64,000 nucleotides of DNA, from IMG/VR virus record IMGVR_UViG_3300037083_000054, positions 1-64,000 of that record; one strand, 5' to 3'. Under the pieces are notes generated by a model that was not told the DNA's origin, made no database searches, and was given only the letters and a program-made list of their open reading frames with translations. The DNA comes from a virus. Both the position numbers and the translations under genes were made by a program. Below, in pieces: positions 24,426-64,000 of the stretch (positions within the stretch are counted from its first letter, which is position 1; each line of letters opens with the position of its first letter).

Positions 24426-24436
24426 AAGGACAAAAT

Positions 24437-24604: not shown

Positions 24605-24916
24605 TTCTCACTTTTTTGTCAACTCATGGGCGGATTGCGGCGGCTTTTCTTGTCGCACAATCCGCTCCACTTCTTTATAGCCGAGCAGTCGGATGAAGTA
24701 TCGAATTCCTAGTAGGGCAATTTCTCGGGCCGTCATCGTTGTATCTCCTCTTGCCTCTAACGCGAATTTCATTGGATTGGCTCAAATCGCAGTCATACAA
24801 TTCCTATTTCTGAGAAACATACTACAATTGTGATATTTATCATAGCGGAATGCCGATTCTTCCATTAGATTCTGCGAGCCTCGCATGTCACTATTCCTCT
24901 GGAGGGAGAATCAATC

Positions 24917-25531: not shown

Positions 25532-26034
25532 TGATGCCAAAAGTCTCGGCCTATTATGCGAAAAAGCAACGAGACGGCTATCGCAAGTCCGTTTCGACCG
25601 TGGACGAGGTTTGGTCGGTTCTTTCGCAGTATCCCCATGCCAACACATGGCTGGGTCCGCGTTCTCCGTTCGGGTCGACGAGCGTTCATCACATCATGGG
25701 TCGAGGTCCGAATCCGCGATTCCACTGGTTCTGCAATCTGGTTGTCTGCTCCGATCTCTGTCATGCCTATGGGCACGACCAGCGACCGTACGTGCTGGAA
25801 TTGTGTTGCTTGCATGCGAAGATGCGGCAAGAAAAGATCTTGCTCGCAGAAGATGGACTGAGATCGTCAGAGTGTTCAGAATGGATTTGGCATCCGACCG
25901 CAATGGCCGAGAATATCCATCGTCCGACCCTCTCGCATCGAATTGAAGAATTGCTCATCAAAACCGCCTATTTACCGGATAGCGGCATTTTACAGACGTT
26001 CGGATGCGAGATTCTCGACTTTCTGAACGAATGA
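25531..26034 (+). CDS. HNH-like nuclease-fold protein
   Basis: VHHIMGR...NLVVCSDLCHAYGH. Confidence 0.5.
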   Translation: MMPKVSAYYAKKQRDGYRKSVSTVDEVWSVLSQYPHANTWLGPRSPFGSTSVHHIMGRGPNPRFHWFCNLVVCSDLCHAYGHDQRPYVLELCCLHAKMRQEKILLAEDGLRSSECSEWIWHPTAMAENIHRPTLSHRIEELLIKTAYLPDSGILQTFGCEILDFLNE

Positions 26035-26069
26035 TTTCCTGTTAGGATTGTCACCAATACGAACCATCC

Positions 26070-26372
26070 TTGCAGGACGACTCTCCGATGCAAATCTGCG
26101 GCCCCCTCATCTCCGGCAGTAATTCCACGATCAATGCGACGACTCCGACGGCGTTGACGTCCACGTTCACTCCGGTGGTAGGTGGAATTATCATTCAGGC
26201 CCCCGCAGGCAACAGCCAGATCATCTATCTTGGCGGCTCGAACGTCACGTCCGCAAATGGCTTTGCTCTCGCTGCCGGAGGCAGTTCGCCGCTTCTCCAT
26301 ATCAACGATGTCAGTAAACTCTATGCGATTTCCGCGACCGGGACGCAGGCCGTCAACTGGATCGGTGGTTAG
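26070..26372 (+). CDS. Small putative structural protein
   Basis: IQAPAGNSQIIYLG.SNVT..NGF.LAAG beta-rich phage protein pattern. Confidence 0.5.
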   Translation: MQDDSPMQICGPLISGSNSTINATTPTALTSTFTPVVGGIIIQAPAGNSQIIYLGGSNVTSANGFALAAGGSSPLLHINDVSKLYAISATGTQAVNWIGG

Positions 26373-26417
26373 TAAGTCGTTGCATTCGAATCCGAATTCG
26401 TTAATCTATTCTCAGTC

Positions 26418-26684
26418 ATGGATTTACTGACTCCGAATGGATTCGATATGTCAACACGCGATGGCCGCAAGGATTGCCGCCCCGGACCGCCCGCTCTCGA
26501 CACCAATCAATCTGCCGAAAATCTCAAAAAGGCGATTGGTGATTTCTACGAGCGAGTGCAAGAACGTCTCAACTCCCCTGGATATCAGGGCGAGATTTCT
26601 CTTTCAGTAATGCTATTCGATGGCATTCCCCAACAACACACTGTCACTGAATCTCAGCGGCACAAGCACAAGGATGTGAAATGA
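26418..26684 (+). CDS. Hypothetical protein
   Basis: ATGA coupling to next gene. Confidence 0.5.
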   Translation: MDLLTPNGFDMSTRDGRKDCRPGPPALDTNQSAENLKKAIGDFYERVQERLNSPGYQGEISLSVMLFDGIPQQHTVTESQRHKHKDVK

Positions 26685-27748
26685 GTTACGTCGATCGCCA
26701 GTCAGAAATTGTGAATGCTGTCAACGAATCCGTCCGTTTGACGGCCAATTGGATTCGGGAATTGCGGAAGAATGACACGCTGAAACCCACCGAATTCATC
26801 ATGCTCGCATGGCGGAATATGATCCTCGCCTGTTCCGGAGATATTCCGGAAGCCTCGCGGTCGATCTGCGTGGCTGTCTCGGTCTTTCAGGAAGAGTTCC
26901 GACAGTATAGCCAAAGCTACGACGGGAAAGTGAACCCGAACGGTTCGCCGGTGGGTTCGTTCTGGGCCGCATTGGCCAAAGTGCAAGAACGCGTGATGAA
27001 ATCGGACACCGTCTACGTGGAAGAACTCGAATCTATTAAGGAACTGCGATCGCAACGAGTTTCGGATGATCAGATTGCCTTTCATATCTATGGCAACCGA
27101 GGAAAAGAGGGGCCGTTTATCACGAAGCATGGGACCGTGAATAAGCGATTGCTGGATCTCGCCGCAGAATCGCGGGATGCTCAAGACAAGATTCTGCGAG
27201 ATGCGGGATGGCCCGAACAAGACGGCATCTTTTACCCGCCGTGGAAAGCCCAATCGAGCACGAGCAAGAACAAGGAAGATCAGGAACGATTCGAGGCGTT
27301 CAAAGCCTTGCAGGAAGGCCCGAAAGCCTACGAAGACCCGTCCTCGATCGAAGATATGTTGTACGATGGCTGTTATGTGCAGCAGATTCAACGCGGCAAA
27401 CATTGTACTCGCGAAGAAGTACTGAACGCGGCGATTGCCTTGGGAATCGACGTGAAGGATGAGCCTGGTTTCAATCCGCGTCTGAATCAAGCGATCACGC
27501 GGAAGGTCGAGCCCGTCGTGCCGGAGCATATGAAGCAGCATCTCGCGGGTGAAGCGGCAGAAGGCGATATTGACCCCGCTGGGACGCTCAGGCCGCATGT
27601 GGAAGTCATTGCGAATGGAAATCCGACATTTGGAGCGGCGGAGATTGTCGAAGACCTGCGAGTGAGCGGCATTTCGGCCACAGCGAGACAGGTGAGCGGT
27701 ATTCTGCGAAGCCTGAAGTCTGCGGCGAAACGTCAGACGGTCCAATAA
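26681..27748 (+). CDS. Hypothetical protein
   Basis: 355 aa ORF, AAGGA RBS, followed by terminator. Confidence 0.7.
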   Translation: MSYVDRQSEIVNAVNESVRLTANWIRELRKNDTLKPTEFIMLAWRNMILACSGDIPEASRSICVAVSVFQEEFRQYSQSYDGKVNPNGSPVGSFWAALAKVQERVMKSDTVYVEELESIKELRSQRVSDDQIAFHIYGNRGKEGPFITKHGTVNKRLLDLAAESRDAQDKILRDAGWPEQDGIFYPPWKAQSSTSKNKEDQERFEAFKALQEGPKAYEDPSSIEDMLYDGCYVQQIQRGKHCTREEVLNAAIALGIDVKDEPGFNPRLNQAITRKVEPVVPEHMKQHLAGEAAEGDIDPAGTLRPHVEVIANGNPTFGAAEIVEDLRVSGISATARQVSGILRSLKSAAKRQTVQ

Positions 27749-27761
27749 ATTCAATTGATTC

Positions 27762-27796
27762 AACAGCCCAGCGGGAAATTCCTTCTGGGCTGTTTT
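27762..27796 (+). terminator. Intrinsic terminator
   Basis: AACAGCCCAG...CTGGGCTGTTTT hairpin with T tail after the 26681 gene. Confidence 0.75.
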
Positions 27797-27824
27797 CCAA
27801 AATCTGCCATAGCATTCGAAAAAA

Positions 27825-27845
27825 ATAAATAAGCCGCTTATTTAT
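27825..27845. promoter_or_regulatory. Palindromic operator copy 2
   Basis: ATAAATAAG-CCG-CTTATTTAT at the start of a new + strand unit. Confidence 0.8.
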
Positions 27846-27883
27846 CGGACAGTGGATATACAGTGCCGTGAGACGACAATGCA

Positions 27884-28276
27884 ATGACGCAAGAATTGAG
27901 AGTCACGATTCACGCGATGGAGCGATTCGTCCAGCGGACTCGCAAGCAATTTCGGCATATCGACGACTGCCTCGCTCGCGGATGCCAGAAATGCGATCGA
28001 CTGAAAGAGATCATTCGCCAAGAAGTCTTTCAGCACTCTGCCGAGATTTCGAAAGAATTGTTGATTCGCTTCGGGCGAGCGAAAGAATATACCCCCGTTC
28101 GCCATACGTCTCTCAAAGGAAAAACCTCCCGCTATTTCTTGCTGGGAGAATTCGAATTCATTGTCGATGATTCGGTCGAACCGGCGGTTTTGATTACCTT
28201 CGCGAAACGGCATCAAGAAACCGTCTGGCGAAAGATCGCAAAAAACTCCCGCACAGGGAATCGGAAAGAACACTAA
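27884..28276 (+). CDS. Hypothetical protein (TxHAxERF motif)
   Basis: VTIHAMERFVQR N-terminus; directly after operator. Confidence 0.6.
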   Translation: MTQELRVTIHAMERFVQRTRKQFRHIDDCLARGCQKCDRLKEIIRQEVFQHSAEISKELLIRFGRAKEYTPVRHTSLKGKTSRYFLLGEFEFIVDDSVEPAVLITFAKRHQETVWRKIAKNSRTGNRKEH

Positions 28277-28374
28277 TGGACGGTGAAAGAACGCTCGGGC
28301 GGCTTTGCAACGCAATTGGCCAAAACGACTTAAATGCGTTTCAGGATGAATAAATACGTTTCAAGGAACTGAAA

Positions 28375-28602
28375 ATGAGCGATTTGAACGAAAAAAGACC
28401 GGAACTGAAGATCTATGTTGTTGGCGAGACTTCCGGGAATCCAGAAGACTGGTCGGAGTTTGGGAGCCGAAAAATCGTGATTGCGGAGTCGCCAGAGCAG
28501 GCATTGGATCTCTCTGATGCAACTCGTCGGGGCTGCGTGTGCCTATTGAATGCAAGTTTTCCAATGGTGGTGATGAGCGAGGAATTTACAGGGACCACCT
28601 AA
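28375..28602 (+). CDS. Tn-A cargo, hypothetical protein
   Basis: AAGGA RBS; inside TIRs. Confidence 0.5.
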   Translation: MSDLNEKRPELKIYVVGETSGNPEDWSEFGSRKIVIAESPEQALDLSDATRRGCVCLLNASFPMVVMSEEFTGTT

Positions 28603-29171
28603 TCCCATTGATCCTTCAGGCGGTTCACTTTTTTTACGTCCCACGATTTGAGGATCAAGTCAGTGCCGACTGTGGCAACGATCATTGAAAATCGACCGCG
28701 ATTCGTTGATGAGTCAAGGTGTTGATTCACGAAGTCGATCATATCGTCCATGTCGCGGATGTCCGATTCTCGCGGAAGATTGAGATGAAGCTTCGACGGC
28801 ATTGTGAGTTTCTTACAATCTGACGCAACTGATTCGTGATCGAATGACAGCACATCCAGCTTGTGAGCAAAGCGATTCCTTATCTCGGCCAGTAATGCAA
28901 GATTGTTGAAGCAGCCTTTTGATATAATCCCAAGGCAATATGCACACTTCGCCTTATTCAAAAACGACCCGATAGGGCCGGACGAATCAAGCATCGCATT
29001 CGCGGTTTCTCCCTCAATAAAATGCAGTCCTAGGAGCGATCCAAGGCAATGGTCCACATAAGCGATTCCGACGATCGCACAAACTGAATCTGTTTGATGA
29101 GTGAGTGCATCGAATAAACCTTGCCATTTTGCTCGCAGATCTTCTGGACTCAGTTGTTTTGGTTTCGCCAT
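28599..29171 (-). CDS. Tn-A cargo, MtlR-like / HEPN-fold protein
   Basis: TDSVCAIVGIAYVD..L, GPIGSF..K, EIRNRFAH (Rx4H). Confidence 0.7.
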   Translation of the reverse strand: MAKPKQLSPEDLRAKWQGLFDALTHQTDSVCAIVGIAYVDHCLGSLLGLHFIEGETANAMLDSSGPIGSFLNKAKCAYCLGIISKGCFNNLALLAEIRNRFAHKLDVLSFDHESVASDCKKLTMPSKLHLNLPRESDIRDMDDMIDFVNQHLDSSTNRGRFSMIVATVGTDLILKSWDVKKVNRLKDQWD

Positions 29172-29204
29172 TTCACTCCTGATAATGTTTGATTTGATTA
29201 AAAT

Positions 29205-29262
29205 AAAAAACCCGCATCTGACACCAAAAGGCTACCGATGTGGGTTTCTCTCATTCAAGCGA
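29205..29262 (-). terminator. Transposase terminator overlapping a putative cargo promoter
   Basis: Hairpin AAACCCGCATC/GATGTGGGTTT with U tail on - strand; TTGAAT-N18-TAGCCT; homologous to 49159-49215. Confidence 0.6.
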
Positions 29263-29269
29263 ATCGCAT

Positions 29270-30577
29270 TTACTGTGATGCCAATTCTTTTTCCATTTCC
29301 TCAATTTCAAGATCTGCGACCCAAGCGTCGCGAGCGTAAGACACCGGTTTTGTTGGTTCGATCGTTTTGTTGTCGCCCCAGAAAATTGGCTCGATCCCAA
29401 GTTCGCATTGTTCTTGAATCAGGCAACAGAGATTGTGAGCGATCAGCTTGCACAAAACCTCATTGGTCATGGCGACCAAGTTTTTGCTGCGAACAGCGTC
29501 GCCGAACTTTCTTTTGACCATGCTGAACGTACTTTCGACGTTTGATCGACGATGATAGTGAGCGAGGTATTCATCCTTTTTGAATTCGAAATAGTGCAGC
29601 ATCTTCTTGAATAGACCACCGACTGATCCAGTCGCATTGTCCTTGAACGCGATGAATGCTATCCCACCGAGATTAGCGACAGTTTCGAAGTTCTCCAGGC
29701 TACTGTATGCCTTGTCCGCCGAGACTTCTTCAATCATGAACGTCTTGCCAGTCTCTTTCACGAGTGGTTCAAACTGCGGGCAATCTGCCGAGTTCTGATC
29801 CATGATCCGAACTGCTGTCACGCAATTCGTTTTGATTCCGCAGGCGATGTGACATTTGATCCAGACGTGCTTCAGTTTCGTCACCCCATACTTCGCGTCA
29901 TACCAGCGTTCGAACTTATTTGTCGAGAATCCGCTGCTGTCGATCGCAAATCGAGTCTCGACCACTTTCAATGGTGCGGCACTCTTGCCGACCAGGGCCG
30001 TGAGAAATGGCGTCAACGCGGGGTTCTCCATGAATGCTGTCGTTTTCACGCCAGGAATCGGTCGCGAGATAAATCCTCGTGCTTGTGCTTCTCGCAAGTC
30101 GGACGAAAACCGTCGACTGCTGAGCGTGGTATAGACCTTGAAGACACAGGCGAAAATCGAATCACGAACTGTGTGCGGTTTCGGCCCTTTTCTCCAGAGT
30201 TCGCGTTCTGGTTCTTTTAATCCCCTGCACAGATCGTGCAGCAATTCCTGTACTCGGTCCTTTTCCATGCTCTGAGCCTTATTGTAAGCCGCCCAGTTTT
30301 GCTTGTAGGTTGTTTTCTTGGTCAGCGTGATGCTCTCGGTCTCTGTCACGCTCCCATCGGGATTAAACTCGCGTTTGGCAGTAATTTCGACGGCATATTG
30401 ATGCTTGCACTTGAAACCGTTCTCCGAATGGTCCGGACATGTGCAGGTCTTTTTGACAGGATCGACGCGGTAAATCGTATTGGCATTTGATTGTGAAGGA
30501 ACCAGCCAAACATTCGACATTCGGTTCAATTTGCACACGGCAGCGATGATCAATCCGCGTTGTTCTCTGGCATCCAT
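29270..30577 (-). CDS. DDE transposase (IS4/IS5 superfamily) with N-terminal SWIM Zn finger
   Basis: CTCPD...CKH (SWIM); AIDSSG, SADKAY, YHRRSNVESTFSMVK (YREK signature). Confidence 0.9.
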   Translation of the reverse strand: MDAREQRGLIIAAVCKLNRMSNVWLVPSQSNANTIYRVDPVKKTCTCPDHSENGFKCKHQYAVEITAKREFNPDGSVTETESITLTKKTTYKQNWAAYNKAQSMEKDRVQELLHDLCRGLKEPERELWRKGPKPHTVRDSIFACVFKVYTTLSSRRFSSDLREAQARGFISRPIPGVKTTAFMENPALTPFLTALVGKSAAPLKVVETRFAIDSSGFSTNKFERWYDAKYGVTKLKHVWIKCHIACGIKTNCVTAVRIMDQNSADCPQFEPLVKETGKTFMIEEVSADKAYSSLENFETVANLGGIAFIAFKDNATGSVGGLFKKMLHYFEFKKDEYLAHYHRRSNVESTFSMVKRKFGDAVRSKNLVAMTNEVLCKLIAHNLCCLIQEQCELGIEPIFWGDNKTIEPTKPVSYARDAWVADLEIEEMEKELASQ

Positions 30578-30582
30578 CTGAT

Positions 30583-30701
30583 AACCCCTTTTAATCAGGG
30601 GCGTTCCCGATAGAATGTTCGATGGTTGGTCGCATTCTGGTGGAAACGCCGGTTTGTGATTCCGTCCCTGATTCGATTCACAGTCGAGTCAGGGATTTTT
30701 T
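30583..30701 (+). ncRNA. Structured transposase leader / putative antisense RNA (copy 1)
   Basis: CCCCT/AGGGG RBS hairpin, GGCGTTCCC..GATAGAAT..GGAAACGCC helix, + strand terminator hairpin 30665-30701 with two G-U pairs. Confidence 0.65.
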
Positions 30702-30719
30702 ATTGGCCAGTGCCAACAC

Positions 30720-30764
30720 GAGCTAGCATACAAAAATAAAAACGATTGTCAAGTATGCTTGCTC
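30720..30764 (-). promoter_or_regulatory. Sigma70-type promoter of the transposase flanked by operator inverted repeat
   Basis: TTGACA-N16-TATGCT on - strand; GAGCTAGCATAC / GTATGCTTGCTC. Confidence 0.7.
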
Positions 30765-30897
30765 GGAATTGAATGTTGTGTTACGATTCTTCTGCTACGC
30801 ATGCTTGCCACGTCAATAGTGCAGGCGCAATGGTTTTCGGCAGGTGTCACGAAAACACGCAGATCGTACGGAAAACAGCAGGTGAAGGAGTCGAATC

Positions 30898-31962
30898 ATG
30901 AAGAAGAAAGAAGCGAGCGAGCACGCAAGGGCCTTGTCGTCTCTTGGAGCGTCCAAAGGTGGAAAGGCAAGGATGGCGAGTCTGACAGAGGAGCAGCGCA
31001 AAGAAATCGCCTCGAATGCCGCTAAGGCTCGGTGGGGAGAAAAGCTGCCGGAAGTGACGCATGGCGATCCAGGGCATCCATTGAAGATCGGTGATATCGA
31101 AATTCCCTGTTACGTCCTGAATGATGGAACCCGTGTTTTGCATCAAAGAGGGATGGTTGATGCACTCGGAATGGCTCGCGGAAGCAGTGGAGGAATTGGC
31201 GGTGACCGACTGGCTAAATTTGTGGCTGGAGAACGATTGAAACCCTACGTTTCAGCCGATTTGCTAGCGGTGACCGAATCACCAATTAAATTCAAGGCTC
31301 CAAATGGCCATGTAGCCTATGGGTATGATGCGAATGTCCTTGCAGAACTGTGCGATGCCGTCATTGCCGCAAGGAATGCCGGAAAGCTGCAAAAGCAGCA
31401 AGCCCACATTGCAGAGCAGTGCGAAACTCTGAAGTCTGGGTTTGCCAGAGTCGGTATCATTGCGTTGGTCGATGAAGCGACCGGATATCAATATGACCGT
31501 GCCCGTACCGCATTGGCAGATATCCTAGAAGCGTTTCTGAAGGGAGCACTGGGTGCGTGGGCCAAGCGATTCGATGATGACTTCTACAAGGAATTGTGCC
31601 GCCTTCGAGATATCCCGTGGCCACCAATCAAAAATCTTCCATCGTATTTTGGCCATCTTGTTAACGATGTAGTCTATGACAGACTGGCTCCAGGATTGAA
31701 GTCTGAGCTTCAGGCGAGGAGCCCGAAGACTCCACGCGGCAATCGTAAGAACAAAATGCATCAGTGGCTGACGGACGATATCGGTCATCCAAAACTGAAA
31801 GAACATATCATCGCGGTAAAGGCATTAATGCGTTCTTGTGACGATTGGGAAGATTTTCATCGTCGGCTAGATAGGGCCTTTCCAAAATTCGATTTGTCAT
31901 CATTGGATTTACCGGAAAATGTCATCATGATTGAAGCCGAAAATAAGCCTGAAGACTCGTGA
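30898..31962 (+). CDS. P63C domain protein with N-terminal KGGKAR basic motif
   Basis: IPCYVLNDGTRVL, ARVGIIALVDEATGYQ, WAKRFDDDFY, VYDRLAPG, HQWLT.DIGHPKL. Confidence 0.88.
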   Translation: MKKKEASEHARALSSLGASKGGKARMASLTEEQRKEIASNAAKARWGEKLPEVTHGDPGHPLKIGDIEIPCYVLNDGTRVLHQRGMVDALGMARGSSGGIGGDRLAKFVAGERLKPYVSADLLAVTESPIKFKAPNGHVAYGYDANVLAELCDAVIAARNAGKLQKQQAHIAEQCETLKSGFARVGIIALVDEATGYQYDRARTALADILEAFLKGALGAWAKRFDDDFYKELCRLRDIPWPPIKNLPSYFGHLVNDVVYDRLAPGLKSELQARSPKTPRGNRKNKMHQWLTDDIGHPKLKEHIIAVKALMRSCDDWEDFHRRLDRAFPKFDLSSLDLPENVIMIEAENKPEDS

Positions 31963-31987
31963 TCGTTGCATTTCGGGAGAAAACTGA

Positions 31988-32632
31988 ATGGCATCAGTGC
32001 CTATTGTCTGTCCGCATTGCTCACGGTCATACAGAGTAGGCGACACGGCCATCGGAAGAAAAGTGTCCTGCATGAATAAGCAGTGCGGGAAGGCATTTGT
32101 CGCCACGACCTCAATCCGATCCGCTCAGTTTGATTTTGAAACGGCAAAAACAGAAACGCCAGTTGAGATCACGTTTAAGTCGATTGACGAGGAAAAAACC
32201 GAGAAGCAAGCACAAGAATTTGGATTGCCAAAATTTGTGCCTTCCGCTGCGGCACCGCCGCTATCTCCCCCGCCAGTGACACCAGCCTTTTCTTTTGTGG
32301 ATGATGATCGAGAGCCATCTCCGTCGCGTAGTACGAACTCTCGATATCCCAACTTGATGCTCAATCTCGAATGGCTGGAAAACGCCGCAAAACGTCAATT
32401 AATGATCGCAAGGATAATTGCTCTTTTACTAGCAGTTCTTTCAGTGATCGGCGCAATCGGCGTGATGGTTCAGGTAGGGGATTTCACTACCGGAATCGTT
32501 GGAATCGGTCTTTTCCCACCGCTCATCTTGTTTCTGATCATTTCTCCAGCATGGATTCTCTATGTTCTTATGATGGCGACAGTTGAATTCATTCGCGTCA
32601 TTATGGACATCGAAAGAAATACCAGAAAATAA
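31988..32632 (+). CDS. Tn-A cargo, Zn-ribbon membrane protein
   Basis: CPHC...CMNKQC N-terminus; two C-terminal TM helices ending DIERNT. Confidence 0.7.
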   Translation: MASVPIVCPHCSRSYRVGDTAIGRKVSCMNKQCGKAFVATTSIRSAQFDFETAKTETPVEITFKSIDEEKTEKQAQEFGLPKFVPSAAAPPLSPPPVTPAFSFVDDDREPSPSRSTNSRYPNLMLNLEWLENAAKRQLMIARIIALLLAVLSVIGAIGVMVQVGDFTTGIVGIGLFPPLILFLIISPAWILYVLMMATVEFIRVIMDIERNTRK

Positions 32633-33054
32633 TCAGACAATTCCGAAACGTCTTAATGCGTTTCAACTTGCGGAAATGCGTTGCGCCTGCCAATTGCGTT
32701 GCAAAGCCCGCTCGGGCAACAGTTTCATGATGCCTATTGGCAGCCCGATTCTCTCGGCAATCTTCCTCGTGGAATGTGTTGGTTCCGACCGTGGAGCGAG
32801 CAATCCAGCGGCACAAAATCGGCCTGCGAACGAGCGGCCCAAGATCTGATTCGCCCCTATCTGCGGAAGATTGCGGAACTGGAAAAACAGATTTCTTGTC
32901 AGAATCTGGCAGAAAATTTCGCGGAATAGTGAACTGAAACCGCATTTCGTGCGTTCTGTGAAGAAGAATGCGGGGAGTGGCTCGTCAGTAAAGAAGAGAA
33001 GTGTTCATGGAGAGTGTGTTGTTGCAATGAATGTGCTGATGAGGAAGGAGAATC

Positions 33055-33342
33055 ATGAGCGACAGTATTCCTGCGGCTGTTCCAAATCCGACGCTGGGCG
33101 AAGTTGCCTTCGTCGCAATAAAAACTCGTGATTATTCCGACTACGGCGACGCCAGCTACTGGTCTGAAAAATATCGAAACCACACTCACGCCAGAGCAAA
33201 ACTCGATTATGAGTTTCAGGCCCAAGCCGTCCGTTCTGCCGTGCTGAAGGAAGTGAGAGAGAAGCTGATTGCGTTCGAACACAATCGCTGTAACAAAGAA
33301 CTGAAAATGAGCGAACTTTTGCAGGAGCTTGGCGATGAGTGA
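33055..33342 (+). CDS. Small phage protein ((T/S)LG(Q/E) family)
   Basis: AAGGAG RBS; PTLGEVAF. Confidence 0.6.
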   Translation: MSDSIPAAVPNPTLGEVAFVAIKTRDYSDYGDASYWSEKYRNHTHARAKLDYEFQAQAVRSAVLKEVREKLIAFEHNRCNKELKMSELLQELGDE

Positions 33343-33862
33343 AAAAGACTTGATCGTCGATCGCAAAGAGGACATGTCGCCAGAAGGGAAGCTTCGCATT
33401 TTAATGCAGGACGACGGCGACATGATCGTCGAATGCCTTGAGTGGAACGATAGAACAAAGCTGATCGAGAGAACTGCGGCGGTTGAGTTTTGTACACATG
33501 CTGGCGGTGGTCGCAGTCCAAAAACACGCATGGCATTGTTGCAATTGGCTCATGCGATGGCTGAGGAGAATAAGGCTGATCCCGATAGTGCTGGTGACTG
33601 GCTTGGTGAAGCGTTTCTTGATTGGATATATGACGATGCAACAGCCCCACTTCACGCCAGAATCGCGGAGTTGGAGAAACGAAATTCAGAGATTGAAAAT
33701 CGGCTTGATGTTATTGGCTGTCGGATTGAAAAAGTTCGTGACCTAGCGGCGGAACAGCAAGGCTGGCGATGGGAAGCCGTGGCTAAGACGGTTAATGAGA
33801 TTGAACGAATTTACTGCGGCGAGTTGATTGATCCAGTTCTCGACGGAAAGGACGGTGGGTGA
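33335..33862 (+). CDS. Hypothetical phage protein
   Basis: VEFCT..GGGRSPKT motif; LHARIAELE tail shared with next gene. Confidence 0.6.
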   Translation: MSEKDLIVDRKEDMSPEGKLRILMQDDGDMIVECLEWNDRTKLIERTAAVEFCTHAGGGRSPKTRMALLQLAHAMAEENKADPDSAGDWLGEAFLDWIYDDATAPLHARIAELEKRNSEIENRLDVIGCRIEKVRDLAAEQQGWRWEAVAKTVNEIERIYCGELIDPVLDGKDGG

Positions 33863-34236
33863 TGAGTGAGAAATCCGACGGACAGGTAGCGTATGAAACA
33901 ATGTCAGCCGAATACCCGGAAGCACAGTTTGTTCCGTGGTTTCGATTGAGCATTGGGCAGCAGTCAGCATGGAACAAGGTCGTCATTGCGACAAATACAC
34001 ATCTTCACGCCAGAATCGCGGAACTCAACACGGACGTTTCCAATCTTGAAATGGCGGTTGATCATGCGGAAGCGATTGCCAAACAGGAGAAGAAAGAAGT
34101 GTTGTCGCTTCATGCCAGAATCGAGGAGTTGGGGACAGTTCTATGTTCCATCAAAACAGATTTGCACGGGAGTTGTACACCAGCGATGCGAGGAATAATC
34201 GACCGAGTTCTCGACGGAAAGGGTGGTGAAGTGTGA
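33859..34236 (+). CDS. Hypothetical phage protein
   Basis: Two LHARI(A/E)EL repeats; VLDGK.G C-terminus shared with previous gene. Confidence 0.6.
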   Translation: MMSEKSDGQVAYETMSAEYPEAQFVPWFRLSIGQQSAWNKVVIATNTHLHARIAELNTDVSNLEMAVDHAEAIAKQEKKEVLSLHARIEELGTVLCSIKTDLHGSCTPAMRGIIDRVLDGKGGEV

Positions 34237-34490
34237 GAGATCTTACCTACGACGATATCGAGGATGTGATTGAGTTGGTACGAGATAATGCTCCAGCCAG
34301 TCGTCAGCTTAATACGATCATCATTTTGGCATATCAGCGAGATGATCAAATTGCTGAGATCGTCCGACTTCGTGTCGCGTTGGAGAATATTCTATCTGTT
34401 ACCAAAAATAATCGACTATCTCTTGGTGAAGCGTTCAGTGAAATGTCAATTATTGCCAGCGAAGCTCTGTCGGGAAAGGGGGAGATGTAA
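34233..34490 (+). CDS. Hypothetical protein
   Basis: GTGA overlap coupling. Confidence 0.5.
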   Translation: MRDLTYDDIEDVIELVRDNAPASRQLNTIIILAYQRDDQIAEIVRLRVALENILSVTKNNRLSLGEAFSEMSIIASEALSGKGEM

Positions 34491-34668
34491 TGATGATAAA
34501 AATTCTGTTGAGTGAGGGTGAGGCAAATTTGATTTTAGAGGTTGCTAAATCTTGTAGTGTTCCTGACTTGTCAGTCCCAAAGTGTCGGATCGGCAATAGC
34601 GTAACGGCAGACTATTGGAGGGGGATTGCCGAGAAAATTGAGCATCTACTGAAGCGGGAGGGGAAGTA

Positions 34669-34980
34669 GTGAACGGAATTGATTTAATCAAGCAAGAACG
34701 TGGACGGCAGATATCAATCGAAGGTTACCGAGACGTACACGATGATATGCACGTCAGTGGTGAACTTGTACGAGCCGCAGAAGCATATTGTCATGCGATT
34801 GAATGGGTTGATGATCAGATAGTTGCGCGAACACTAAGGCCATCATTTCCATGGCCGTGGGAGAAGAAATGGTGGAAACCGTCAACCGACAATATTAAAA
34901 ACCTCACGAAAGCCGGGGCATTGATCGCGGCTGAAATCGACAGGCTTTTACGTCTTCAGGAAAGGAAGTCAGCGAAGTGA
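34669..34980 (+). CDS. Conserved phage protein (ERxRQ..EG...HDD family)
   Basis: ERGRQISIEGY..HDD.H..GEL..AA, WPW..KWWKP, KAGALIAAEIDRL. Confidence 0.75.
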   Translation: MNGIDLIKQERGRQISIEGYRDVHDDMHVSGELVRAAEAYCHAIEWVDDQIVARTLRPSFPWPWEKKWWKPSTDNIKNLTKAGALIAAEIDRLLRLQERKSAK

Positions 34981-35365
34981 AAACCATCGACGAAATGATC
35001 GCAGTGATGCAGGCCGCAAAATTAGAAAACGGCAAAAACATTCAAATCAGCGATAAGAGCGTTGAACGCTGGTCTGACTGCTACGGAATGCCCGGTTGGA
35101 ACTGGGGGGAATTCGACTACCGCATCGTCCCTCCCCCCCCCCAGTAGAGAAGTGGGTGCATTGGACGATTGAGGAGTGGGAACAAAAAATTCCAATCGCC
35201 GTTCGCCAAAAGAGCACGGGAATCCTTGCGACAGCTTGCGTTTCGGAGAGAGGCAAGATTTGCGTTATTGGTTTGGAGGGGCCGAATTGGAGGACTCTTG
35301 AGCAAGCCTTGAAAGAGTTGACGCTATTTGATGGCAGTCCTTGTGGGAAGTTGGTGACGGAATGA
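34977..35365 (+). pseudogene. Phage gene (WNW..FDYRI family) frameshifted at a C10 tract
   Basis: GTG 34977 frame reads ...PGWNWGEFDYRIVPPPP then stops; the -1 frame continues PVEKWVHWT... to 35365. Confidence 0.55.
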
Positions 35366-36941: not shown

Positions 36942-36958
36942 ATAAGCGGCTTATTTAT
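36938..36958. promoter_or_regulatory. Palindromic operator copy 3
   Basis: TTAAATAAG-CGG-CTTATTTAT. Confidence 0.75.
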
Positions 36959-47877: not shown

Positions 47878-48062
47878 GGCTTTGCACGTTTAATCCCGAA
47901 TAAAAGTGCAGACGGACCCGAACGGCGAATTAAACGTGCATGCCAAAGGATCTGACAATTGGCGATTATCCGGATTATTTCATTGAAGTTTCTGAATTTG
48001 CAACAGACGTTTTCGCTGCGGCCTTCGCGGCTTTCATGGCTTTAATCTTTTCTCGATACCAG

Positions 48063-48467
48063 TCAGGTATCTTGTGCGTCGTCACAGGCGGAAAGGGAAT
48101 CGTTTCTTTTGAGCAGATGCTTTCTGAGACTGGAAATTCTTCGAAAACGAGCTCCAAACTCCCATTCACCAGTTTTAATGTCCAGTGCGACATAATTCAT
48201 CTCTTCGGTTTCGCAGTGATCAAAATATCGGAGCAGTTCGTCTAAGTCCTTGATGGCAGCAGGTTCATATGTGCCGACAGTTGTCCATTCGTCACGCTCG
48301 GCGATGAATTGCTTTGCTGCCATCTCGCTGGAAAACAATGGAGCGGCATTTTGGATCTCTTCTGGCGAGAGAACAGCCAATATCCCCCTCCATCCCGCGA
48401 CAATATCGACAGGAATCCAAATAGGATACGTAATGTCGATATCATCGTTTTCATGGATTGATTCCAT
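48063..48467 (-). CDS. Tn-B cargo, hypothetical protein
   Basis: Start preceded by GGGAG inside conserved hairpin. Confidence 0.6.
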   Translation of the reverse strand: MESIHENDDIDITYPIWIPVDIVAGWRGILAVLSPEEIQNAAPLFSSEMAAKQFIAERDEWTTVGTYEPAAIKDLDELLRYFDHCETEEMNYVALDIKTGEWEFGARFRRISSLRKHLLKRNDSLSACDDAQDT

Positions 48468-48579
48468 TATGCGAACTCCCGATTGACTACGTACCGGGAG
48501 TTGCTACCATGCCATCGCCATAACCGCATGGTTCTCCCAGAGAACAAAAGAACGCCAGCAATCCCCATTGCTGGCGTTT
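48468..48579 (-). ncRNA. Conserved four-hairpin inter-cargo element (copy 1)
   Basis: Colinear homology with 56008-56121. Confidence 0.6.
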
Positions 48580-48618
48580 ATCATTTTCCAAGATTCATTC
48601 TGAACTGCAATGGCAGAT

Positions 48619-49125
48619 TCAGATTGATCTCTCGGTCTCAATTTTGACTGTCGACATCGTTGCCCAGACCATCAACAAGATCCATACGATGCCGGTCCAC
48701 GCCAAACAGAAGTTCAGAATCAGGATCGGAACCAGATTCCGATGTGCTCGTAAATAGGCGATTATGGACGGCAAGAAATGCAACAAGATTAAAGCAACAA
48801 TGGCAACTGATCCAAATGCCGCGAAAAACACGGCGCGAATTTTGTCGTCGGCCAATGTCTTATTGTTCGCAAAAATCCCCACGCACATTACGACAAACAA
48901 GAGTGCAGTAAGAATCGCAGAGCCAATGACGATAATTTTCCCTTGTCCGTTCTTCGTCCAATAAACTGAAGAATGATCCGATTTCTGGATGATAATTGGT
49001 TCTTCTTTGTCGGCATCACACCTTGGACACACGGTCATTTTCGATGTGTTTGCCGTTGCCGGTATTGCGTAAACTTTACCGCACGACGGACAGGTCCATT
49101 TTTGACGTGACGCACCTGAAGACAT
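48619..49125 (-). CDS. Tn-B cargo, Zn-ribbon membrane protein with superinfection immunity (T4 Imm-like) domain
   Basis: WTCPSC..CPRC; HFLPSIIAYLRAHRN..PILILNFCLAWTGIVWIL.MVWA. Confidence 0.8.
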   Translation of the reverse strand: MSSGASRQKWTCPSCGKVYAIPATANTSKMTVCPRCDADKEEPIIIQKSDHSSVYWTKNGQGKIIVIGSAILTALLFVVMCVGIFANNKTLADDKIRAVFFAAFGSVAIVALILLHFLPSIIAYLRAHRNLVPILILNFCLAWTGIVWILLMVWATMSTVKIETERSI

Positions 49126-49158
49126 GATCTCTCTTTCGTCGTGTTGAGTGTTGAGCAG

Positions 49159-49215
49159 AAAAGACGCATCGGATGCTTGTAAGACTACCGATGCGTCTTG
49201 CTGAGATTCAAGCGA
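49159..49215 (-). terminator. Transposase terminator overlapping a putative cargo promoter
   Basis: AAGACGCATCGG/CCGATGCGTCTT hairpin with U tail on - strand; TTGAAT-N18-TAGTCT. Confidence 0.6.
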
Positions 49216-49220
49216 TGCGT

Positions 49221-50438
49221 TTACTTCGCGAATGCAGGTTCGATACCTAGTTCGTAAAACTCACTGATTAGGCAGCAGATGTTATGTGCCAAAACCTTAC
49301 ACAGAACTTCGTTTTTCATGGCGATTTCGGTCTTGCTGCGAACTGAATCTCCGAACTTGCGTTTTACCATTGAGAATGTGGATTCAATGTTACTCCGCTT
49401 GTGATACGACTGAAGAAACTCCTCACGGTACAAGCTGAAGAAATGAAATGCCTTGCCAAACAATCCACCGATGCCGCCTGTAGTTCCCGAACGAAACGTG
49501 ATGTATGGCTCGGCCCCGAGAGCATTGATGGCTCGGAAGTTCGATTCGCTCGCATACTGAGTGTCGGCACTCACTTCCTTAACGTCGAAATTCTTTGCGG
49601 TTGTCTGCATGAGTGCTGGCAGAAGTGGTGAATCATTCGCGTTGCGGTCAAGGATTTCCACAGCCGTGATGACATTCGTTTTCACCCCGCACACGGCATG
49701 CAGCTTGACCCAAGTATGCTCAGTCCTGACTTTTCCATATTTATGATCGAACCATCTAATGAACTTCGACGATGTGAAACCTGATGAATCAACCGCAAAA
49801 TCGGTTTCAACGCTTTTGAGCGGCAAACTGGATGTCTGGATCAATTGAACAAGATGTTCCGTCATTTCTTCATCTTCTAGCGCAGTGCTGATCGCATTGA
49901 AATGCGGTGTTCGTTCGATATACCCCTTGTACTTCGCATCGTCCAGATCGCACATAAATCTTCTCTGGCTGACAGTGCTGTAAACCTTGAAACAGGCCAT
50001 GAATATGCAGTCAGACATGGGAATTCGTGGGCGACCGCGTCCAGGCGTCGCTAAGGGTGCCTTGACGTTGTCGCACAGCGATCGCAATAGCGACTGAAAG
50101 TGATCTTTCTCGCTCGTCTGCGCCTGATTGTATTCCGCCCACATTTGAGGATATGTCGGACGTTTGACGGTCGTAGAAATAGTCACTTCCTCAGTCGTTG
50201 TCTCAGTGCCGTCCGCGTTCTGCTCGCGTTTGATGACATATCGGACGGCGTAAATGTGCTTGCACTCTTGACCACGTTTTTCGAAGTCCGGGCAATTGCA
50301 ATAGGGCGTTTGCTCATCTGCCACGACGGTGTATTTGCCTTCGCCTGTCTGACTGGGGACGATCCACACTTGTCCTTTTTGCACAATTCGACTTCCGGCA
50401 GCGATCGTAGCACCACGTTGTTCTCTTGCTTCGCACAT
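49221..50438 (-). CDS. DDE transposase with SWIM Zn finger (homolog of 29270 gene)
   Basis: MCEAREQRG start aligns with MDAREQRG; CNCPD..CKH; AVDSSG, SADTQY, YHKRSNIESTFSMVK. Confidence 0.9.
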   Translation of the reverse strand: MCEAREQRGATIAAGSRIVQKGQVWIVPSQTGEGKYTVVADEQTPYCNCPDFEKRGQECKHIYAVRYVIKREQNADGTETTTEEVTISTTVKRPTYPQMWAEYNQAQTSEKDHFQSLLRSLCDNVKAPLATPGRGRPRIPMSDCIFMACFKVYSTVSQRRFMCDLDDAKYKGYIERTPHFNAISTALEDEEMTEHLVQLIQTSSLPLKSVETDFAVDSSGFTSSKFIRWFDHKYGKVRTEHTWVKLHAVCGVKTNVITAVEILDRNANDSPLLPALMQTTAKNFDVKEVSADTQYASESNFRAINALGAEPYITFRSGTTGGIGGLFGKAFHFFSLYREEFLQSYHKRSNIESTFSMVKRKFGDSVRSKTEIAMKNEVLCKVLAHNICCLISEFYELGIEPAFAK

Positions 50439-50442
50439 GACT

Positions 50443-50558
50443 TGCCTCTTTTTCTGTTGAGGCATTCCCGATAGAATCGCAATTGCTATGTCGCGGATTG
50501 GCGGGAACGCCAGTTTGTGATTCGCCCCGGTTTCGATTCGCAGTCGATTCCGGGTTTT
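50443..50558 (+). ncRNA. Structured transposase leader / putative antisense RNA (copy 2)
   Basis: TGCCTC/GAGGCA RBS hairpin, GGCATTCCCGATAGAAT..GCGGGAACGCC, terminator hairpin 50526-50558. Confidence 0.65.
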
Positions 50559-50571
50559 CCTTACGCATAGT

Positions 50572-50638
50572 ATTGTACGGACATAATTATCGGAAGTCAA
50601 TAAGAAACCATTGACAAAAATAATTTTGTCCGTACACT
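50572..50638. promoter_or_regulatory. Divergent sigma70 promoters with operator inverted repeat
   Basis: - strand TTGACT-N17-TACAAT; + strand TTGACA-N16-TACACT; TGTACGGACA / TGTCCGTACA overlap both -10 boxes. Confidence 0.8.
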
Positions 50639-50644
50639 TCCAGC

Positions 50645-50902
50645 ATGCACGAAAAACGACCAGGAAGACCGCCAAAGTCAGGCGTCGCATTCGGAGTTCG
50701 CATCGAGATTCGAGCGACGGACGAAGAGCGAGACCGCATCGACAAGGCGGCGAGCATTGCCGGTAAAGAGCGATCCGAGTGGATTCGTAGCACGCTGCAA
50801 TTAGCGGCGAATCAGACAATTGAAGAACATGATTCACAACCAGTGTTGAAAATGACGAAGAGATCTGTAAAATCAAAGAAGACCGGCCATGCTGGAACAT
50901 GA
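50645..50902 (+). CDS. Ribbon-helix-helix-like regulator (DUF1778/MobA-like), probably leaderless
   Basis: RPGRPPK..IEIRATDEERDRIDKAA....RSEWIR; ATG 6 nt after -10. Confidence 0.8.
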   Translation: MHEKRPGRPPKSGVAFGVRIEIRATDEERDRIDKAASIAGKERSEWIRSTLQLAANQTIEEHDSQPVLKMTKRSVKSKKTGHAGT

Positions 50903-51183
50903 CCGGCTTCGAGAGAAAAACGCCAATCTTCGGGATTGGCACCGATGGCATCCTGCCATCACCTGCTATCCGTCGAGGAACAGCCTGTCATTGCGGCAAA
51001 TTGCCGTCTTGTCAGATCGAACCAAAACGGAAGCAGGCCATGAAGCCATATGGCTTGCATGGCAGTCCTCCTGAAAACCGAGCGATTGGATTATCTTGGG
51101 TTCTAAGTCAAAGTACCCAATCCTCGGTCACTGAGGCACCACTATCCACAGTGGCCCGGATGTCGCCTCGTTTGGCATCCGGG

Positions 51184-51533
51184 TTATTTCTTCGCTTCCT
51201 CTCCACTCCATTTCCCGTCCGGGAGCTTTCTGAAGTTTTTGTCGTTCAGCGTGGTATTGACAGTTCCCTGCGGAATTCCTGATTTGGCGATAACGTCACG
51301 ACGCAACATCGGCCCCTCTTTAATCAAAAACTCTCTCAATTCTTGAACCCTAGTCTTTCCCGCAGTAGTGGCATTGCCTGCTGGCGTTTTATTGCCTCCG
51401 CCTGCCGGAGTTTTCTGATTCGACCGGGGCGGTTTTGAAGTAATTCGCTCAATTGCTTCTGCACCGAGCATTAATTCCTCCACTGTCGTTCCGATTGCAA
51501 TCCAGCCATTTTCTGTTTTTTGAATTGATGCCA
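51184..51533 (-). CDS. Tn-B cargo, small protein with C-terminal winged-HTH-like region (start uncertain)
   Basis: LREFLIKEGPMLRRDVIAKSGIPQGTV...F..LPDGKW. Confidence 0.55.
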
Positions 51534-51783
51534 TACAAGTCCCCGCGATTCTGTTCCAGACGTCGATAATGACAATACTTATGAATGGTATCGACCATAA
51601 CGTAAAAAGCAATAGCGCAGGGAACGACCATAATTTGGTCATGCGTCCATATTGCCTGAAAACGAAAAAGGCCCGGAGATCCGCAGATCACCGAGCCTTG
51701 ATAAGTTTGAGAAAGCCCCCGTCAGTTGATTAAAAGTGCAGAACTGCGATTATTCGTGCAAGTGCCATTAAACGTGCAAAGCC

Positions 51784-62773: not shown

Positions 62774-62847
62774 GGCTTTGCCCATTTAATGGCACTTGCC
62801 CGAATAATGAAAGGTCTGCCCGTTTAATCGGTGCATGAAAAATTATC

Positions 62848-63183
62848 ATGGCCATGAAGCCTGAAGAACTATTCAATTTAGCCGTCACAGACAAGTTTCC
62901 CGACTATTTCCATCCAGGGCAAGGCGATTTGGTGCCAGACGATCTTCTGTCGGCCATGATTGTCCGCTGTGGCGCTCCAGATCTGGGCGGAAAAACGAAC
63001 AGTGCGCTTGAGGGTGGTGGGCTGGTGATCGATTACATTCCAAAAGGAATGCTTGGCGTCAAGCGGCTTGTGCTGAGTTTAAATGATTTGGGAATCAATG
63101 TTGTTATGTGTGATCACCTTCCAGAAGATAATGAGACCATTGTGGATTCAGTTCCACTAAATACCGCCGAACAGCATTCTTGA
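62848..63183 (+). CDS. Tn-C cargo, hypothetical protein
   Basis: ORF directly inside TIR. Confidence 0.5.
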   Translation: MAMKPEELFNLAVTDKFPDYFHPGQGDLVPDDLLSAMIVRCGAPDLGGKTNSALEGGGLVIDYIPKGMLGVKRLVLSLNDLGINVVMCDHLPEDNETIVDSVPLNTAEQHS

Positions 63184-63721
63184 CGTGCGTCAGTTCATGA
63201 ATGTGGAAAGCCTGCTCGATTGGCGTTCCTTCGTGGTGATATCTCCATTTGGAGAATACTTCTGAGCAGTCGTTCAAAATCTGATCAATTGTCGCTTTCT
63301 GTTTTGGTTGTGTTGTATCTGAACAAAACTGAATGCGAACAAGATCTTTTGAACTATTCTCTTCATATAAAGCAGCAATCTTCTTCTGGCTGTTGGCTGT
63401 CATTTTCTGAAACAATTCGTTCAGTGGGTGTATTCGCTTGATAGATGTGTTTTCGCATTTGAGAACGGACTTGAAATACAACTCAACACAGAAAGCTGTT
63501 GCGACAACGAATGCTTTTAGAGTGGGAAGCCGTGTTTCAACTGTTGATCTTGGGTTTTTCTGATGTTCAACCCTCGCTGCTTCGAGACGATTCAGCGAGT
63601 CAGCGGCGAGAACCTCAGACGAATAGTCCCAATTGACCGCATTGGCAAATAACCCAATTCCAGTGTCGTATGGTTCTGTGTCGAGGGCCACATGGTAAAT
63701 CGTCATATTCGTTGAATCCAT
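63104..63721 (-). CDS. Tn-C cargo, HEPN-like protein
   Basis: AFCVELYFKSVL, HPLNELF, FSKWRYHHE. Confidence 0.65.
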   Translation of the reverse strand: MDSTNMTIYHVALDTEPYDTGIGLFANAVNWDYSSEVLAADSLNRLEAARVEHQKNPRSTVETRLPTLKAFVVATAFCVELYFKSVLKCENTSIKRIHPLNELFQKMTANSQKKIAALYEENSSKDLVRIQFCSDTTQPKQKATIDQILNDCSEVFSKWRYHHEGTPIEQAFHIHELTHVKNAVRRYLVELNPQWSHYLLEGDHT

Positions 63722-63805
63722 AATTCGCGCGAACCATGTCCGATGTCATGACGTCTTAAGAATATCATGATTCAACATTTGACTCTCTTCGCCCCCACGC
63801 TCTAA

Positions 63806-63997
63806 TCACGACTTCTTTCGTGATTGCTCACGCCGAGCTTCTTCCAGCAGAATTTCCCTGGCCCAGGTAGATGTGTGACCATCTGCCGCCGCGTCGAGAA
63901 CTGTTCGCTCCTCTTTCGTGAGGCGAATACGCAGTTCTGCACTCTTGCGTGCCGCATCGGATTTGAAGGGCCGTCCCCGTTCTCGTTTGGTTTCCAT
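63806..63997 (-). CDS. Ribbon-helix-helix-like regulator
   Basis: RGRPFK..LRIRLTKEERTVLDAAA...STWAREILL; homolog of 50645 and 52552. Confidence 0.8.
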   Translation of the reverse strand: METKRERGRPFKSDAARKSAELRIRLTKEERTVLDAAADGHTSTWAREILLEEARREQSRKKS

Positions 63998-64000
63998 ATT

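Follow-up and report, generated by a model that had tools for sequence, protein, structure and literature searches.

What kind of mobile element has entered the genome of a large uncultured peat phage, and does it belong to a kind already described? Insertion sequences (IS) are generally regarded as rare in phage genomes and as carriers of a transposase alone. The question is raised by Tn-A, a segment of 4408 bp (28301-32708) in the IMG/VR virus record IMGVR_UViG_3300037083_000054. The window, that is, the whole stretch of DNA analysed, comprises the first 64 kb of this 122,834-bp record, which is classed as linear and 83% complete, and contains phage hallmark genes for a helicase (7881-9806), a large terminase (43891-45852) and a portal protein (58216-59904). 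The evidence argues, with a probability of about 0.85, that Tn-A is a complete cargo transposon with a single transposase, inserted in the phage genome. Elements of this general design, termed transporter IS (tIS) or unit transposons in the sense of ISfinder and TnCentral, are already known.

Boundaries and gene content of Tn-A

The two arms of Tn-A are complementary at 20 of 20 positions and form a terminal inverted repeat (TIR), GGCTTTGCAACGCAATTGGC, while the 9-bp sequence CGCTCGGGC lies directly outside both arms, 9 of 9 bases being identical, as expected of a target-site duplication (TSD). The perfect TIRs and the 9-bp TSD reported in the preliminary description of this DNA, which had been made from the letters alone, are hereby confirmed. 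The terminus begins GGCTTTGCAACGC, and within the window the 13-nt terminus has exact matches only at these two arms. Its outermost 8 nt, the tip GGCTTTGC, occur 9 times in the window versus 2.3 expected, a count reached in 0 of 100 shuffles. Moreover, the TIR starts with GGCTTTG, the tip of the IS903 group.

Five open reading frames (ORFs) are listed inside Tn-A, and the central one, tnpA, encodes an intact transposase (Table 1). TnpA was aligned with 22 relatives, among them TnpB and TnpC, the transposases of two further elements of the same phage, Tn-B and Tn-C. In this 23-sequence alignment, C45, C47, C57 and H59 of the CxCx9CxH finger are invariant, and so are D213, D288 and E348 and the Y341-R344-E348-K355 spacing. 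The single central transposase with a SWIM zinc finger and a YREK-type DDE core that had been proposed is therefore borne out by domain matches (PF04434 and PF01609) and invariant residues alike. Passenger genes were also correctly placed on both sides of it, two ORFs per side: the 75-aa ORF and the MtlR-like gene on the downstream side of tnpA, and the P63C gene and the 214-aa ORF upstream and divergent from it. The DNA separating tnpA from the P63C gene contains a sequence resembling a promoter on the minus strand (30752-30725) as well as a hairpin with a T run behind it (30664-30696); promoter-like sites in the region number 4 versus 4.4 expected, which is the level of chance.

This layout corresponds to that of a transporter IS or unit transposon, in which one transposase, one pair of short TIRs and one TSD delimit internal passengers unrelated to transposition. 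It is not that of a composite transposon, since Tn-A has one transposase gene and its ends have nothing in common beyond the 20-bp TIR and short subterminal repeats. Pfam and NCBIfam gave no match to a Tn3-type transposase or resolvase or to TnsA, TnsB or TnsC in the five ORFs.

An entirely different explanation would be that no insertion into a phage genome took place, and that a chimeric metagenome assembly, or bacterial DNA joined to phage DNA, produced the present arrangement. The record is indeed a metagenome assembly, linear and 83% complete, repeated elements often give chimeric joins, and Tn-B and Tn-C have no TSDs. Such an artefact is nevertheless very improbable. When contigs of four public peat runs were placed on 24000-37000, those of run X2, from a second sample and another study, crossed both junctions of Tn-A (27887-28771 and 31732-33007) with 0 differences. 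In addition, a perfect 20-bp TIR with a perfect 9-bp TSD around it is what a single insertion leaves behind, and phage hallmark genes lie on both sides of Tn-A on the same contig.

Table 1. Features of Tn-A, of its probable target gene and of the related elements Tn-B and Tn-C
Feature	Position	Strand	Support or remark
5' stub of probable target gene, 8 codons MDGERTLG	28276..28300	+	Script reconstruction; gene status inferred
Left TSD copy CGCTCGGGC	28292..28300	.	Identical to 32709-32717
Left TIR, 3' side of tnpA, invariant tip GGCTTTGC	28301..28320	+	20/20 complementary to 32689-32708
Left-end repeat GCAACGCA	28307-28314		Offset 6; inverted copy (1 mismatch) at 28335-28342, offset 34
Passenger ORF, 75 aa	28375..28602	+	Codon score 0.021, weakly positive; no match in Pfam, NCBIfam, PADLOC or PHROG
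Passenger gene, 190 aa, weakly MtlR-like	28599..29171	-	PF05068 1.3e-5, 25.6 bits versus cut-off 25.2 (borderline); NF008234 3.3e-7 (below its cut-off); phrog_22031 8.9e-8
tnpA, 435-aa SWIM zinc-finger and DDE (YREK) transposase, intact	29270..30577	-	PF01609 1.3e-21; PF04434 (SWIM) 1.9e-6
Divergent intergenic region, tnpA / P63C gene	30578..30897	.	Consensus scan only
Passenger gene, 354 aa, P63C-domain phage protein	30898..31962	+	PF10546 1.3e-27; phrog_2384 8e-112
Passenger ORF, 214 aa, N-terminal zinc-ribbon-like CxxC pairs, hydrophobic C-terminal part	31988..32632	+	Codon score 0.022; TIGR02098 0.0024 (below its cut-off)
Right TIR (32689-32708), 5' side of tnpA, with three direct GCAACGCA-type repeats	32657..32708	-	Offsets 6/24/44 from tip
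3' part of probable target gene	32681..32929	+	Now 82-aa ORF from TTG inside right TIR; codon score +0.042
Right TSD copy	32709..32717	.	Identical to left copy
Tn-B, 3906 bp	47878..51783	-	17 identical terminal bp; GCAC-type repeats in family plan
Tn-B superinfection-immunity-domain gene	48619-49125	-	PF14373 4.1e-14; phrog_1039
tnpB	~49221-50438	-	
Tn-B ORF, 152 aa	51184-51642	-	
Tn-C, left part	62774..64000	+	Three GCCC-type repeats at left end; continues past window
tnpC	genome 64138-65463		

Relatives of Tn-A and their cargo

The transposase of Tn-A has a great many relatives. A word-indexed search with TnpA scored 8000 candidates, of which 5547 reached E<=0.001, and an exhaustive search of 1.84 billion cluster representatives (50% identity) found 5684 at this threshold, 3041 at 1e-10 and 914 at 1e-30. 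Among the matches listed, 119 relatives are 63-78% identical to TnpA, protein names are only 'transposase' or 'hypothetical protein' and never an IS family, and organism names are Planctomycetes or Planctomycetota bacterium and Gemmataceae bacterium. A single-protein scan of genome contigs yielded 2 loci, and 3 of 301 sampled genomes from the phylum of one genome (G001) had a match; these low counts in metagenome-assembled genomes (MAGs) are no evidence of rarity, because MAGs lose repeats.

For the study of element ends, 23 viral loci, 80 metagenome loci (of 581 confirmed) and a few MAG loci (from a Planctomycetota and a Pirellulales genome) were gathered, and two scans were made. The first, free of any motif, required an inverted repeat of 10 nt enclosing the transposase gene and a TSD identity of at least 8/9; it returned 24 elements among 110 transposase places, all 24 of which start with GGCTTTGC, and one extra 8/9 pair without the motif, which is about the chance expectation. 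In the second, the tip GGCTTTGC was sought directly in 106 loci, where the gene is full-length in 90, at least one end lies near the gene in 85 and a left-right pair is present in 53. Besides Tn-A, 31 of the 53 pairs have a perfect 9/9 TSD, 5 lie at contig edges and 17 have a TSD below 8/9. Where at least 4 kb was available on both sides, a pair was found in 24 of 25 loci and a perfect TSD in 18 of 25. By source, TSD-flanked elements were found in 13 of the 23 viral loci and 17 of the 80 metagenome loci.

The 31 TSD-flanked elements measure 2015-6688 bp, all begin with GGCTTTGC, and none is a bare IS of 1.4 kb; the shortest candidate pairs span 2101 bp (L107, TSD 7/9) and 2481 bp (L074, TSD 1/9). 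Homologs with the same tip, a 9-bp TSD and variable cargo, for which a test had been advised, were thus found in the form of 31 further elements, all of which hold varied non-transposase DNA. As to the earlier proposal that Tn-A defines such a family, its membership in a cargo-carrying SWIM-DDE family stands, but the element is not a defining one; it is one member of an IS903-related clade.

DNA methylases, restriction enzymes and toxin-antitoxin genes figure prominently in the cargo of these relatives. In an all-against-all comparison, 6 elements proved to share large N6-adenine methylases whose N-terminus is HSDR_N-like, 3 to have N6_N4 methylases and 5 a small protein of ~80 aa divergent from the transposase gene. 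For the 31 elements together, a Pfam tally covering 140 ORFs (112 aa or longer) gave the following: N6_Mtase (7), HTH_31 (5), HTH_3 (4), N6_N4_Mtase (3), HSDR_N_2 (3) and Eco57I (3), with one each of RE_BstXI, BglII endonuclease, D12 methylase, Gp49, PIN, Peptidase_M78, dCTP-deaminase-like, DUF3800, TM2 and P63C; these counts are not gene fractions, because the 140 ORFs include spurious antisense frames. Tn-A, Tn-B and Tn-C themselves carry phage-type genes rather than restriction-modification, and the PADLOC defence models gave no match among their seven cargo ORFs.

Several single loci deserve mention. A 73-kb complete viral contig (L024, the same as G003) harbors a 3852-bp member at 7656-11507 with a 9/9 TSD; this copy is decayed, because its transposase match sets in only at residue 67 and an N6 methylase ORF ends prematurely, reaching into the region of the transposase. 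In the right flanks of L025 and L085, another GGCTTTGC end starts 1 nt past the TSD, pointing to adjacent or nested insertions. In three metagenome contigs (L051, L070 and L076), a contig terminus coincides to within a few bases with an element end, which would be expected if the element were multi-copy in its host. Furthermore, four metagenome or MAG members with GCACAA-type ends (L018, L108, L117 and L121) are each centred in a GC-rich palindrome, CCCTC(T)CCC...GGGAG(A)GGG, with outer flanks that are otherwise unrelated, and a GCACAA-type sub-lineage may target hairpins of the repetitive extragenic palindromic (REP)-like or terminator kind. Across the family, no palindromic target preference was detected, mean symmetry being 4.9 versus 4.2 in controls.

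Architecture of the ends

Although the interiors of the ends vary by element, they follow one plan. At the end on the 5' side of the transposase gene, there are usually direct copies of an 8-mer, specific to the element, at offsets 6/24/44; at the 3'-side end, a terminal copy (offset 6) is accompanied by inverted copies at offsets 34 and/or 54. With a strict threshold (8-mer, at most 1 mismatch) applied to 32 elements, and 640 interior windows as controls, at least three direct copies were found at the 5'-side end in 14/32 and at the other end in 2/32 (controls 4/640), an inverted copy at the 3'-side end in 20/32 (controls 31/640), and the full asymmetric pair in 15/32. Tn-A fits the plan, with offsets 6/24/44 at the right end and 6/34 at the left. 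In L018, L083 and L085 the transposase gene is flipped relative to the ends. The type of repeat tracks transposase similarity: AACGCA-type repeats accompany transposases 54-71% identical to TnpA, and the GCCCAA and GCACAA types accompany those near 50%.

These features bear on the notion that the flanking ORFs of Tn-A are not passengers, and that two independent solo ends or miniature elements merely bracket resident phage genes together with a simple IS. Unpaired family ends do exist in this phage, at genome 65475 and 115557. However, the ends of Tn-A are identical over 20 bp, carry the same type of repeat in the usual asymmetric arrangement of the family and have a 9-bp duplication outside exactly these two ends, and this layout recurs, around unrelated cargo, in 31 other elements, so that solo ends are the least probable of all the explanations weighed here.

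Kinship with the IS903 group and comparison with other systems

IS903 is a simple IS of ~1.05 kb that encodes a single transposase of ~307 aa and no passengers. Among the NCBIfam models, TnpA fits NF033579 (IS5 family) best, at 2e-29 over residues 207-383, which is the catalytic half only; the 306-aa ISVa2 transposase reaches 386 bits on the same model. In phage and plasmid collections, the closest matches of TnpA are 22.8-26.2% identical and annotated as IS5-family transposases such as ISVa2. An hhalign comparison aligned TnpA 93-376 with ISVa2 9-286 at a probability of 96.3%, placing D213 and D288 onto D121 and D193 of ISVa2, with the YxxRxxxE stretch in register too. Judged from these alignments, TnpA is a distant relative of the IS903-group (IS5 family) transposases, the closest annotated relatives found.

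The likeness extends to the ends. Those of ISVa2 start GGCTTTGTTGCTTAA, with the tip GGCTTTGTTGCTT, and enclose ~1.05 kb; according to two papers (PMC8477213, PMC10569121), the ends of IS903 and IS903B start GGCTTTGTTGAATA and the direct repeat of IS903B is 9 bp. With IS903, IS903B and ISVa2, Tn-A has in common a PF01609 DDE core with the Y-(2)-R-(3)-E-(6)-K signature, NF033579 as best model, the GGCTTTG tip and the 9-bp TSD; tip, duplication length and a colinear enzyme having all been observed, Tn-A shares them with the IS903 group. On the other hand, TnpA has an N-terminal SWIM extension of ~90 aa (435 aa versus 306 aa in ISVa2) and only ~23-27% identity to transposases of that group. The SWIM elements, moreover, are 2.0-6.7 kb long with passengers, in contrast to a simple IS of ~1.05 kb and one gene, and the ends in the Tn-A family are asymmetric, with extra subterminal repeats at fixed offsets. 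Tn-A accordingly combines IS903-group-like enzymology with an added domain, complex ends and habitual cargo.

Comparison with other systems gives a similar picture of partial likeness. Unlike transporter IS in general, the clade has the SWIM finger, the invariant GGCTTTGC tip and near-obligatory cargo, and no name for such a clade was found. Mutator elements (MULE) and IS256-type transposons with SWIM also have a CxCxnCxH finger in a DDE transposase, whereas the catalytic domain of Tn-A is PF01609 (IS4/IS5 type), with no Mutator- or IS256-type domain among its Pfam matches; the finger of TnpA is N-terminal, a position that probably differs from that of the MULE finger. Tn7-like transposons, treated as carriers of defence cargo in PMC8649781, resemble the present family in that members nearly always have variable, defence-rich cargo. 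They differ in that Tn-A is far smaller and has one IS5-type DDE enzyme and no TnsABC or TnsD homologs, and in that members of its family reside inside phage genomes.

It may be objected that nothing here is new, and that the same element and mechanism represent an ordinary passenger-carrying subgroup of IS5/IS903 already in ISfinder or TnCentral. IS with passenger genes are listed in ISfinder; tip, TSD length and colinear transposase are all traits of the IS903 group, and the family is so abundant that curators may well have met members. This is considered unlikely, though less so than an assembly artefact, given that named public records among the matches listed never give an IS family, that TnpA stays below the cut-off of the NCBIfam IS5 models, that phage and plasmid records are at most 26.2% identical, and that no description of such elements was found in the full-text literature searched. 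A search of that literature for SWIM-bearing IS5/IS903-like cargo transposons found no published description; ISfinder, TnCentral (preprint 10.1101/2021.05.26.445724) and paper supplements lay outside that search.

Diverged members in the same phage

As the preliminary description had noted, Tn-B and Tn-C share the GGCTTTGC terminus with Tn-A and differ from it in TIR interiors and cargo. Its view of a diverse family of unit transposons, as opposed to recent copies of one IS, agrees with the transposases themselves, TnpA being 48-50% identical to TnpB and TnpC, and TnpB 71% identical to TnpC. Together, Tn-A (4408 bp), Tn-B (3906 bp) and Tn-C (up to 5359 bp) make up ~11% of the record and lie within the head and packaging module.

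The right end of Tn-B cuts into the 3' end of a 321-aa ORF (51768-52733, minus strand) with a weak match to an IS4 N-terminal domain. A perfect 19-nt inverted repeat, GAATGGCACTAGGATAAGG, at 47785-47803 and 56712-56730, encloses Tn-B, this ORF and three more ORFs and has no TSD; the region may be a second kind of transposon that was hit by Tn-B and later suffered a deletion. For Tn-C, there are two candidate right ends: a GCAC-type end at genome 65475 (65468-65475), 12 nt past the tnpC stop, and a GCCC-type end at genome 68132 (68125-68132), which agrees with the left tip at 17/17 bases. A gene in the distal segment of Tn-C, at genome 66676-67422, specifies a 248-aa protein with a C-type lectin domain (PF00059, 3.1e-8), an unusual passenger for a transposon.

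A further GCCC-type end at genome 115557 (115550-115557) has no partner and no TSD. Its 68 nt, and a segment of ~155 nt before the adjacent 272-aa ORF, match the corresponding stretches of Tn-C at 81-82% identity; the ~155-nt segment has a counterpart in Tn-B as well, at 75% identity. Such a leader, together with a conserved end, encloses one set of genes in Tn-B, another in Tn-C and yet another at genome 114532-115557. Since the brackets are conserved and the genes between them differ, comparison of the three suggests that cargo has been swapped as cassettes through recombination between the brackets. Tn-B, Tn-C and the solo end are possibly rearranged or partly deleted copies, perhaps with cassette exchange; assembly chimerism is an alternative.

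Target site and evidence against the preferred reading

Which gene, if any, did Tn-A interrupt? When Tn-A and one TSD copy are removed in silico, ORFs reopen across the site on both strands, and the earlier statement that an interrupted gene is restored in frame is in this sense literally true. The gene in question, however, is an unverified 78-aa ORFan, and the long minus-strand ORF scores as non-coding. Coding potential was assessed with a codon model trained on 31 long phage ORFs, the training genes of which score +0.107. A 241-codon minus-strand ORF, considered as the target gene, was rejected, as its two parts score -0.049 and -0.044, like antisense DNA; it had no database match and no gene call of its own. 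Length by itself is a poor guide to coding in this phage, where shadow ORFs of considerable length are frequent, as illustrated by a 353-aa antisense ORF (26702-27763, minus strand) opposite a 355-aa gene (26681-27748, plus strand), with codon scores of -0.047 versus +0.165.

The plus strand is the strand of all neighbouring genes, and there the excision frame from ATG 28276 reads 78 aa across the site. The ATG of the stub shares bases with the TAA that ends the 130-aa gene before it (27884-28276), and the 82-aa ORF that now holds the 3' part equals the public gene call P0285. The 70-aa plus-strand piece of the probable target matched its own gene call only, with no homolog, and no paralog in the phage. 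At best, then, a 78-aa plus-strand ORFan is a plausible target. A promoter-like TGGACA-18-AATAAT lies at 32604-32633, ~50 nt before the TTG of the 82-aa fusion ORF; insertion of Tn-A may still drive the truncated target gene, promoter-like sites there occurring at chance frequency.

Several results weigh against the preferred reading of Tn-A as a complete inserted transposon, beginning with the enzyme itself. An AlphaFold2 model of TnpA, made from the 23-row alignment, has a mean predicted local distance difference test (pLDDT) of 60.5 and falls below 50 over most of the catalytic core; because it is poor there, it lends no structural support. With 103 bits against a cut-off of 140, TnpA is not accepted by NF033579, the curated IS903-type model, and membership in the IS5 family is for this reason a matter of remote homology.

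The duplications of relatives form a second group. The 17 of 53 TIR pairs without a TSD are joined by Tn-B and Tn-C; rearrangement, adjacent deletion or assembly chimeras are conceivable causes. Tn-B has no TSD, its flanks CCTTCGCGT and ACCGCACCA being unrelated, and Tn-C has none with either candidate right end. Nor did a TSD emerge for Tn-B or Tn-C in any pairing of eight ends, including post-inversion pairings of flanks (compared by eye), and excision of these elements with 0-9 bases dropped restored no convincing ORF.

Finally, the empty site for which a search had been advised was found neither in contigs of the four peat runs nor in viral contigs. No joint skipping Tn-A occurs in the run contigs, runs X3 and X4 being almost without the phage; contigs drop rare variants, so their silence says nothing on absence. 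A 17-nt empty-site motif had a single exact match in viral contigs (L130), which was rejected as a chance match because its flanks are unrelated, and for the flanking proteins 26681-27748 and 33329-33862 a pattern method detected no relatives in viral contigs. No empty site having been found, transposition into this site is deduced from the TIRs and the TSD, and the Tn-A copy may be fixed and inactive.

Proposed mechanism and biological meaning

On the model that is proposed for Tn-A, TnpA would bind element-specific repeats of 8-11 bp, presumably as three direct copies at its 5'-side end and as one terminal and one inverted copy at the other. The putative contribution of the SWIM finger, ~90 aa at the N-terminus that IS903-type enzymes do not have, is probably to end binding. 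The catalytic core, with D213, D288, E348 and the Y-R-E-K residues, would then cut at the invariant GGCTTTGC tip, the ends would be joined to a target cut with a 9-bp stagger, and repair of the stagger would give rise to the 9-bp duplication. All DNA between the ends would travel along, including the genes for the P63C protein, the zinc-ribbon/membrane-like ORF, the MtlR-like protein and the 75-aa ORF. Cleavage, 9-bp staggered integration and repeat binding by TnpA are proposed here from what is known of the IS903 group and of DDE transposases in general. Transposition of Tn-A may be of the cut-and-paste or of the replicative kind, the former being preferred here, and the element may be active at present.

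In a wider perspective, the SWIM-finger, GGCTTTGC-tipped elements could constitute a very large, unnamed sister clade of the IS903 group, in which cargo is the rule, the ends are multi-site with a fixed plan, and which would be a main small vehicle for restriction-modification, toxin-antitoxin and phage 'moron' genes between Planctomycetota and their phages. This proposal is put forward tentatively, its chances being rated at slightly less than even. One phage holds three diverged members of the family, each with its own passengers, among them superinfection-immunity, P63C and C-type-lectin proteins. If the family is undescribed, as the search of the literature suggests, it would represent a widespread and very compact route for defence and counter-defence genes between hosts and viruses. 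Its fixed end plan, with an invariant tip and element-specific repeats at set offsets, makes it a tractable model and could show how an IS903-type enzyme gained specificity modules and cargo capacity. For annotation, a simple rule follows: the GGCTTTGC tip, a 9-bp TSD and a SWIM-DDE gene delimit such elements.

A recurrent palindrome of the phage

Apart from Tn-A and its relatives, a palindrome, TAAATAAGC(G/C)GCTTATTTA, recurs between genes ~7-9 times across the phage. It is found in the window at 12508-12529, 27823-27844, 36939-36960 and 43848-43869, and further on at genome 86890, 100010 and 119226, and it is probably a phage-wide terminator or regulatory hairpin.

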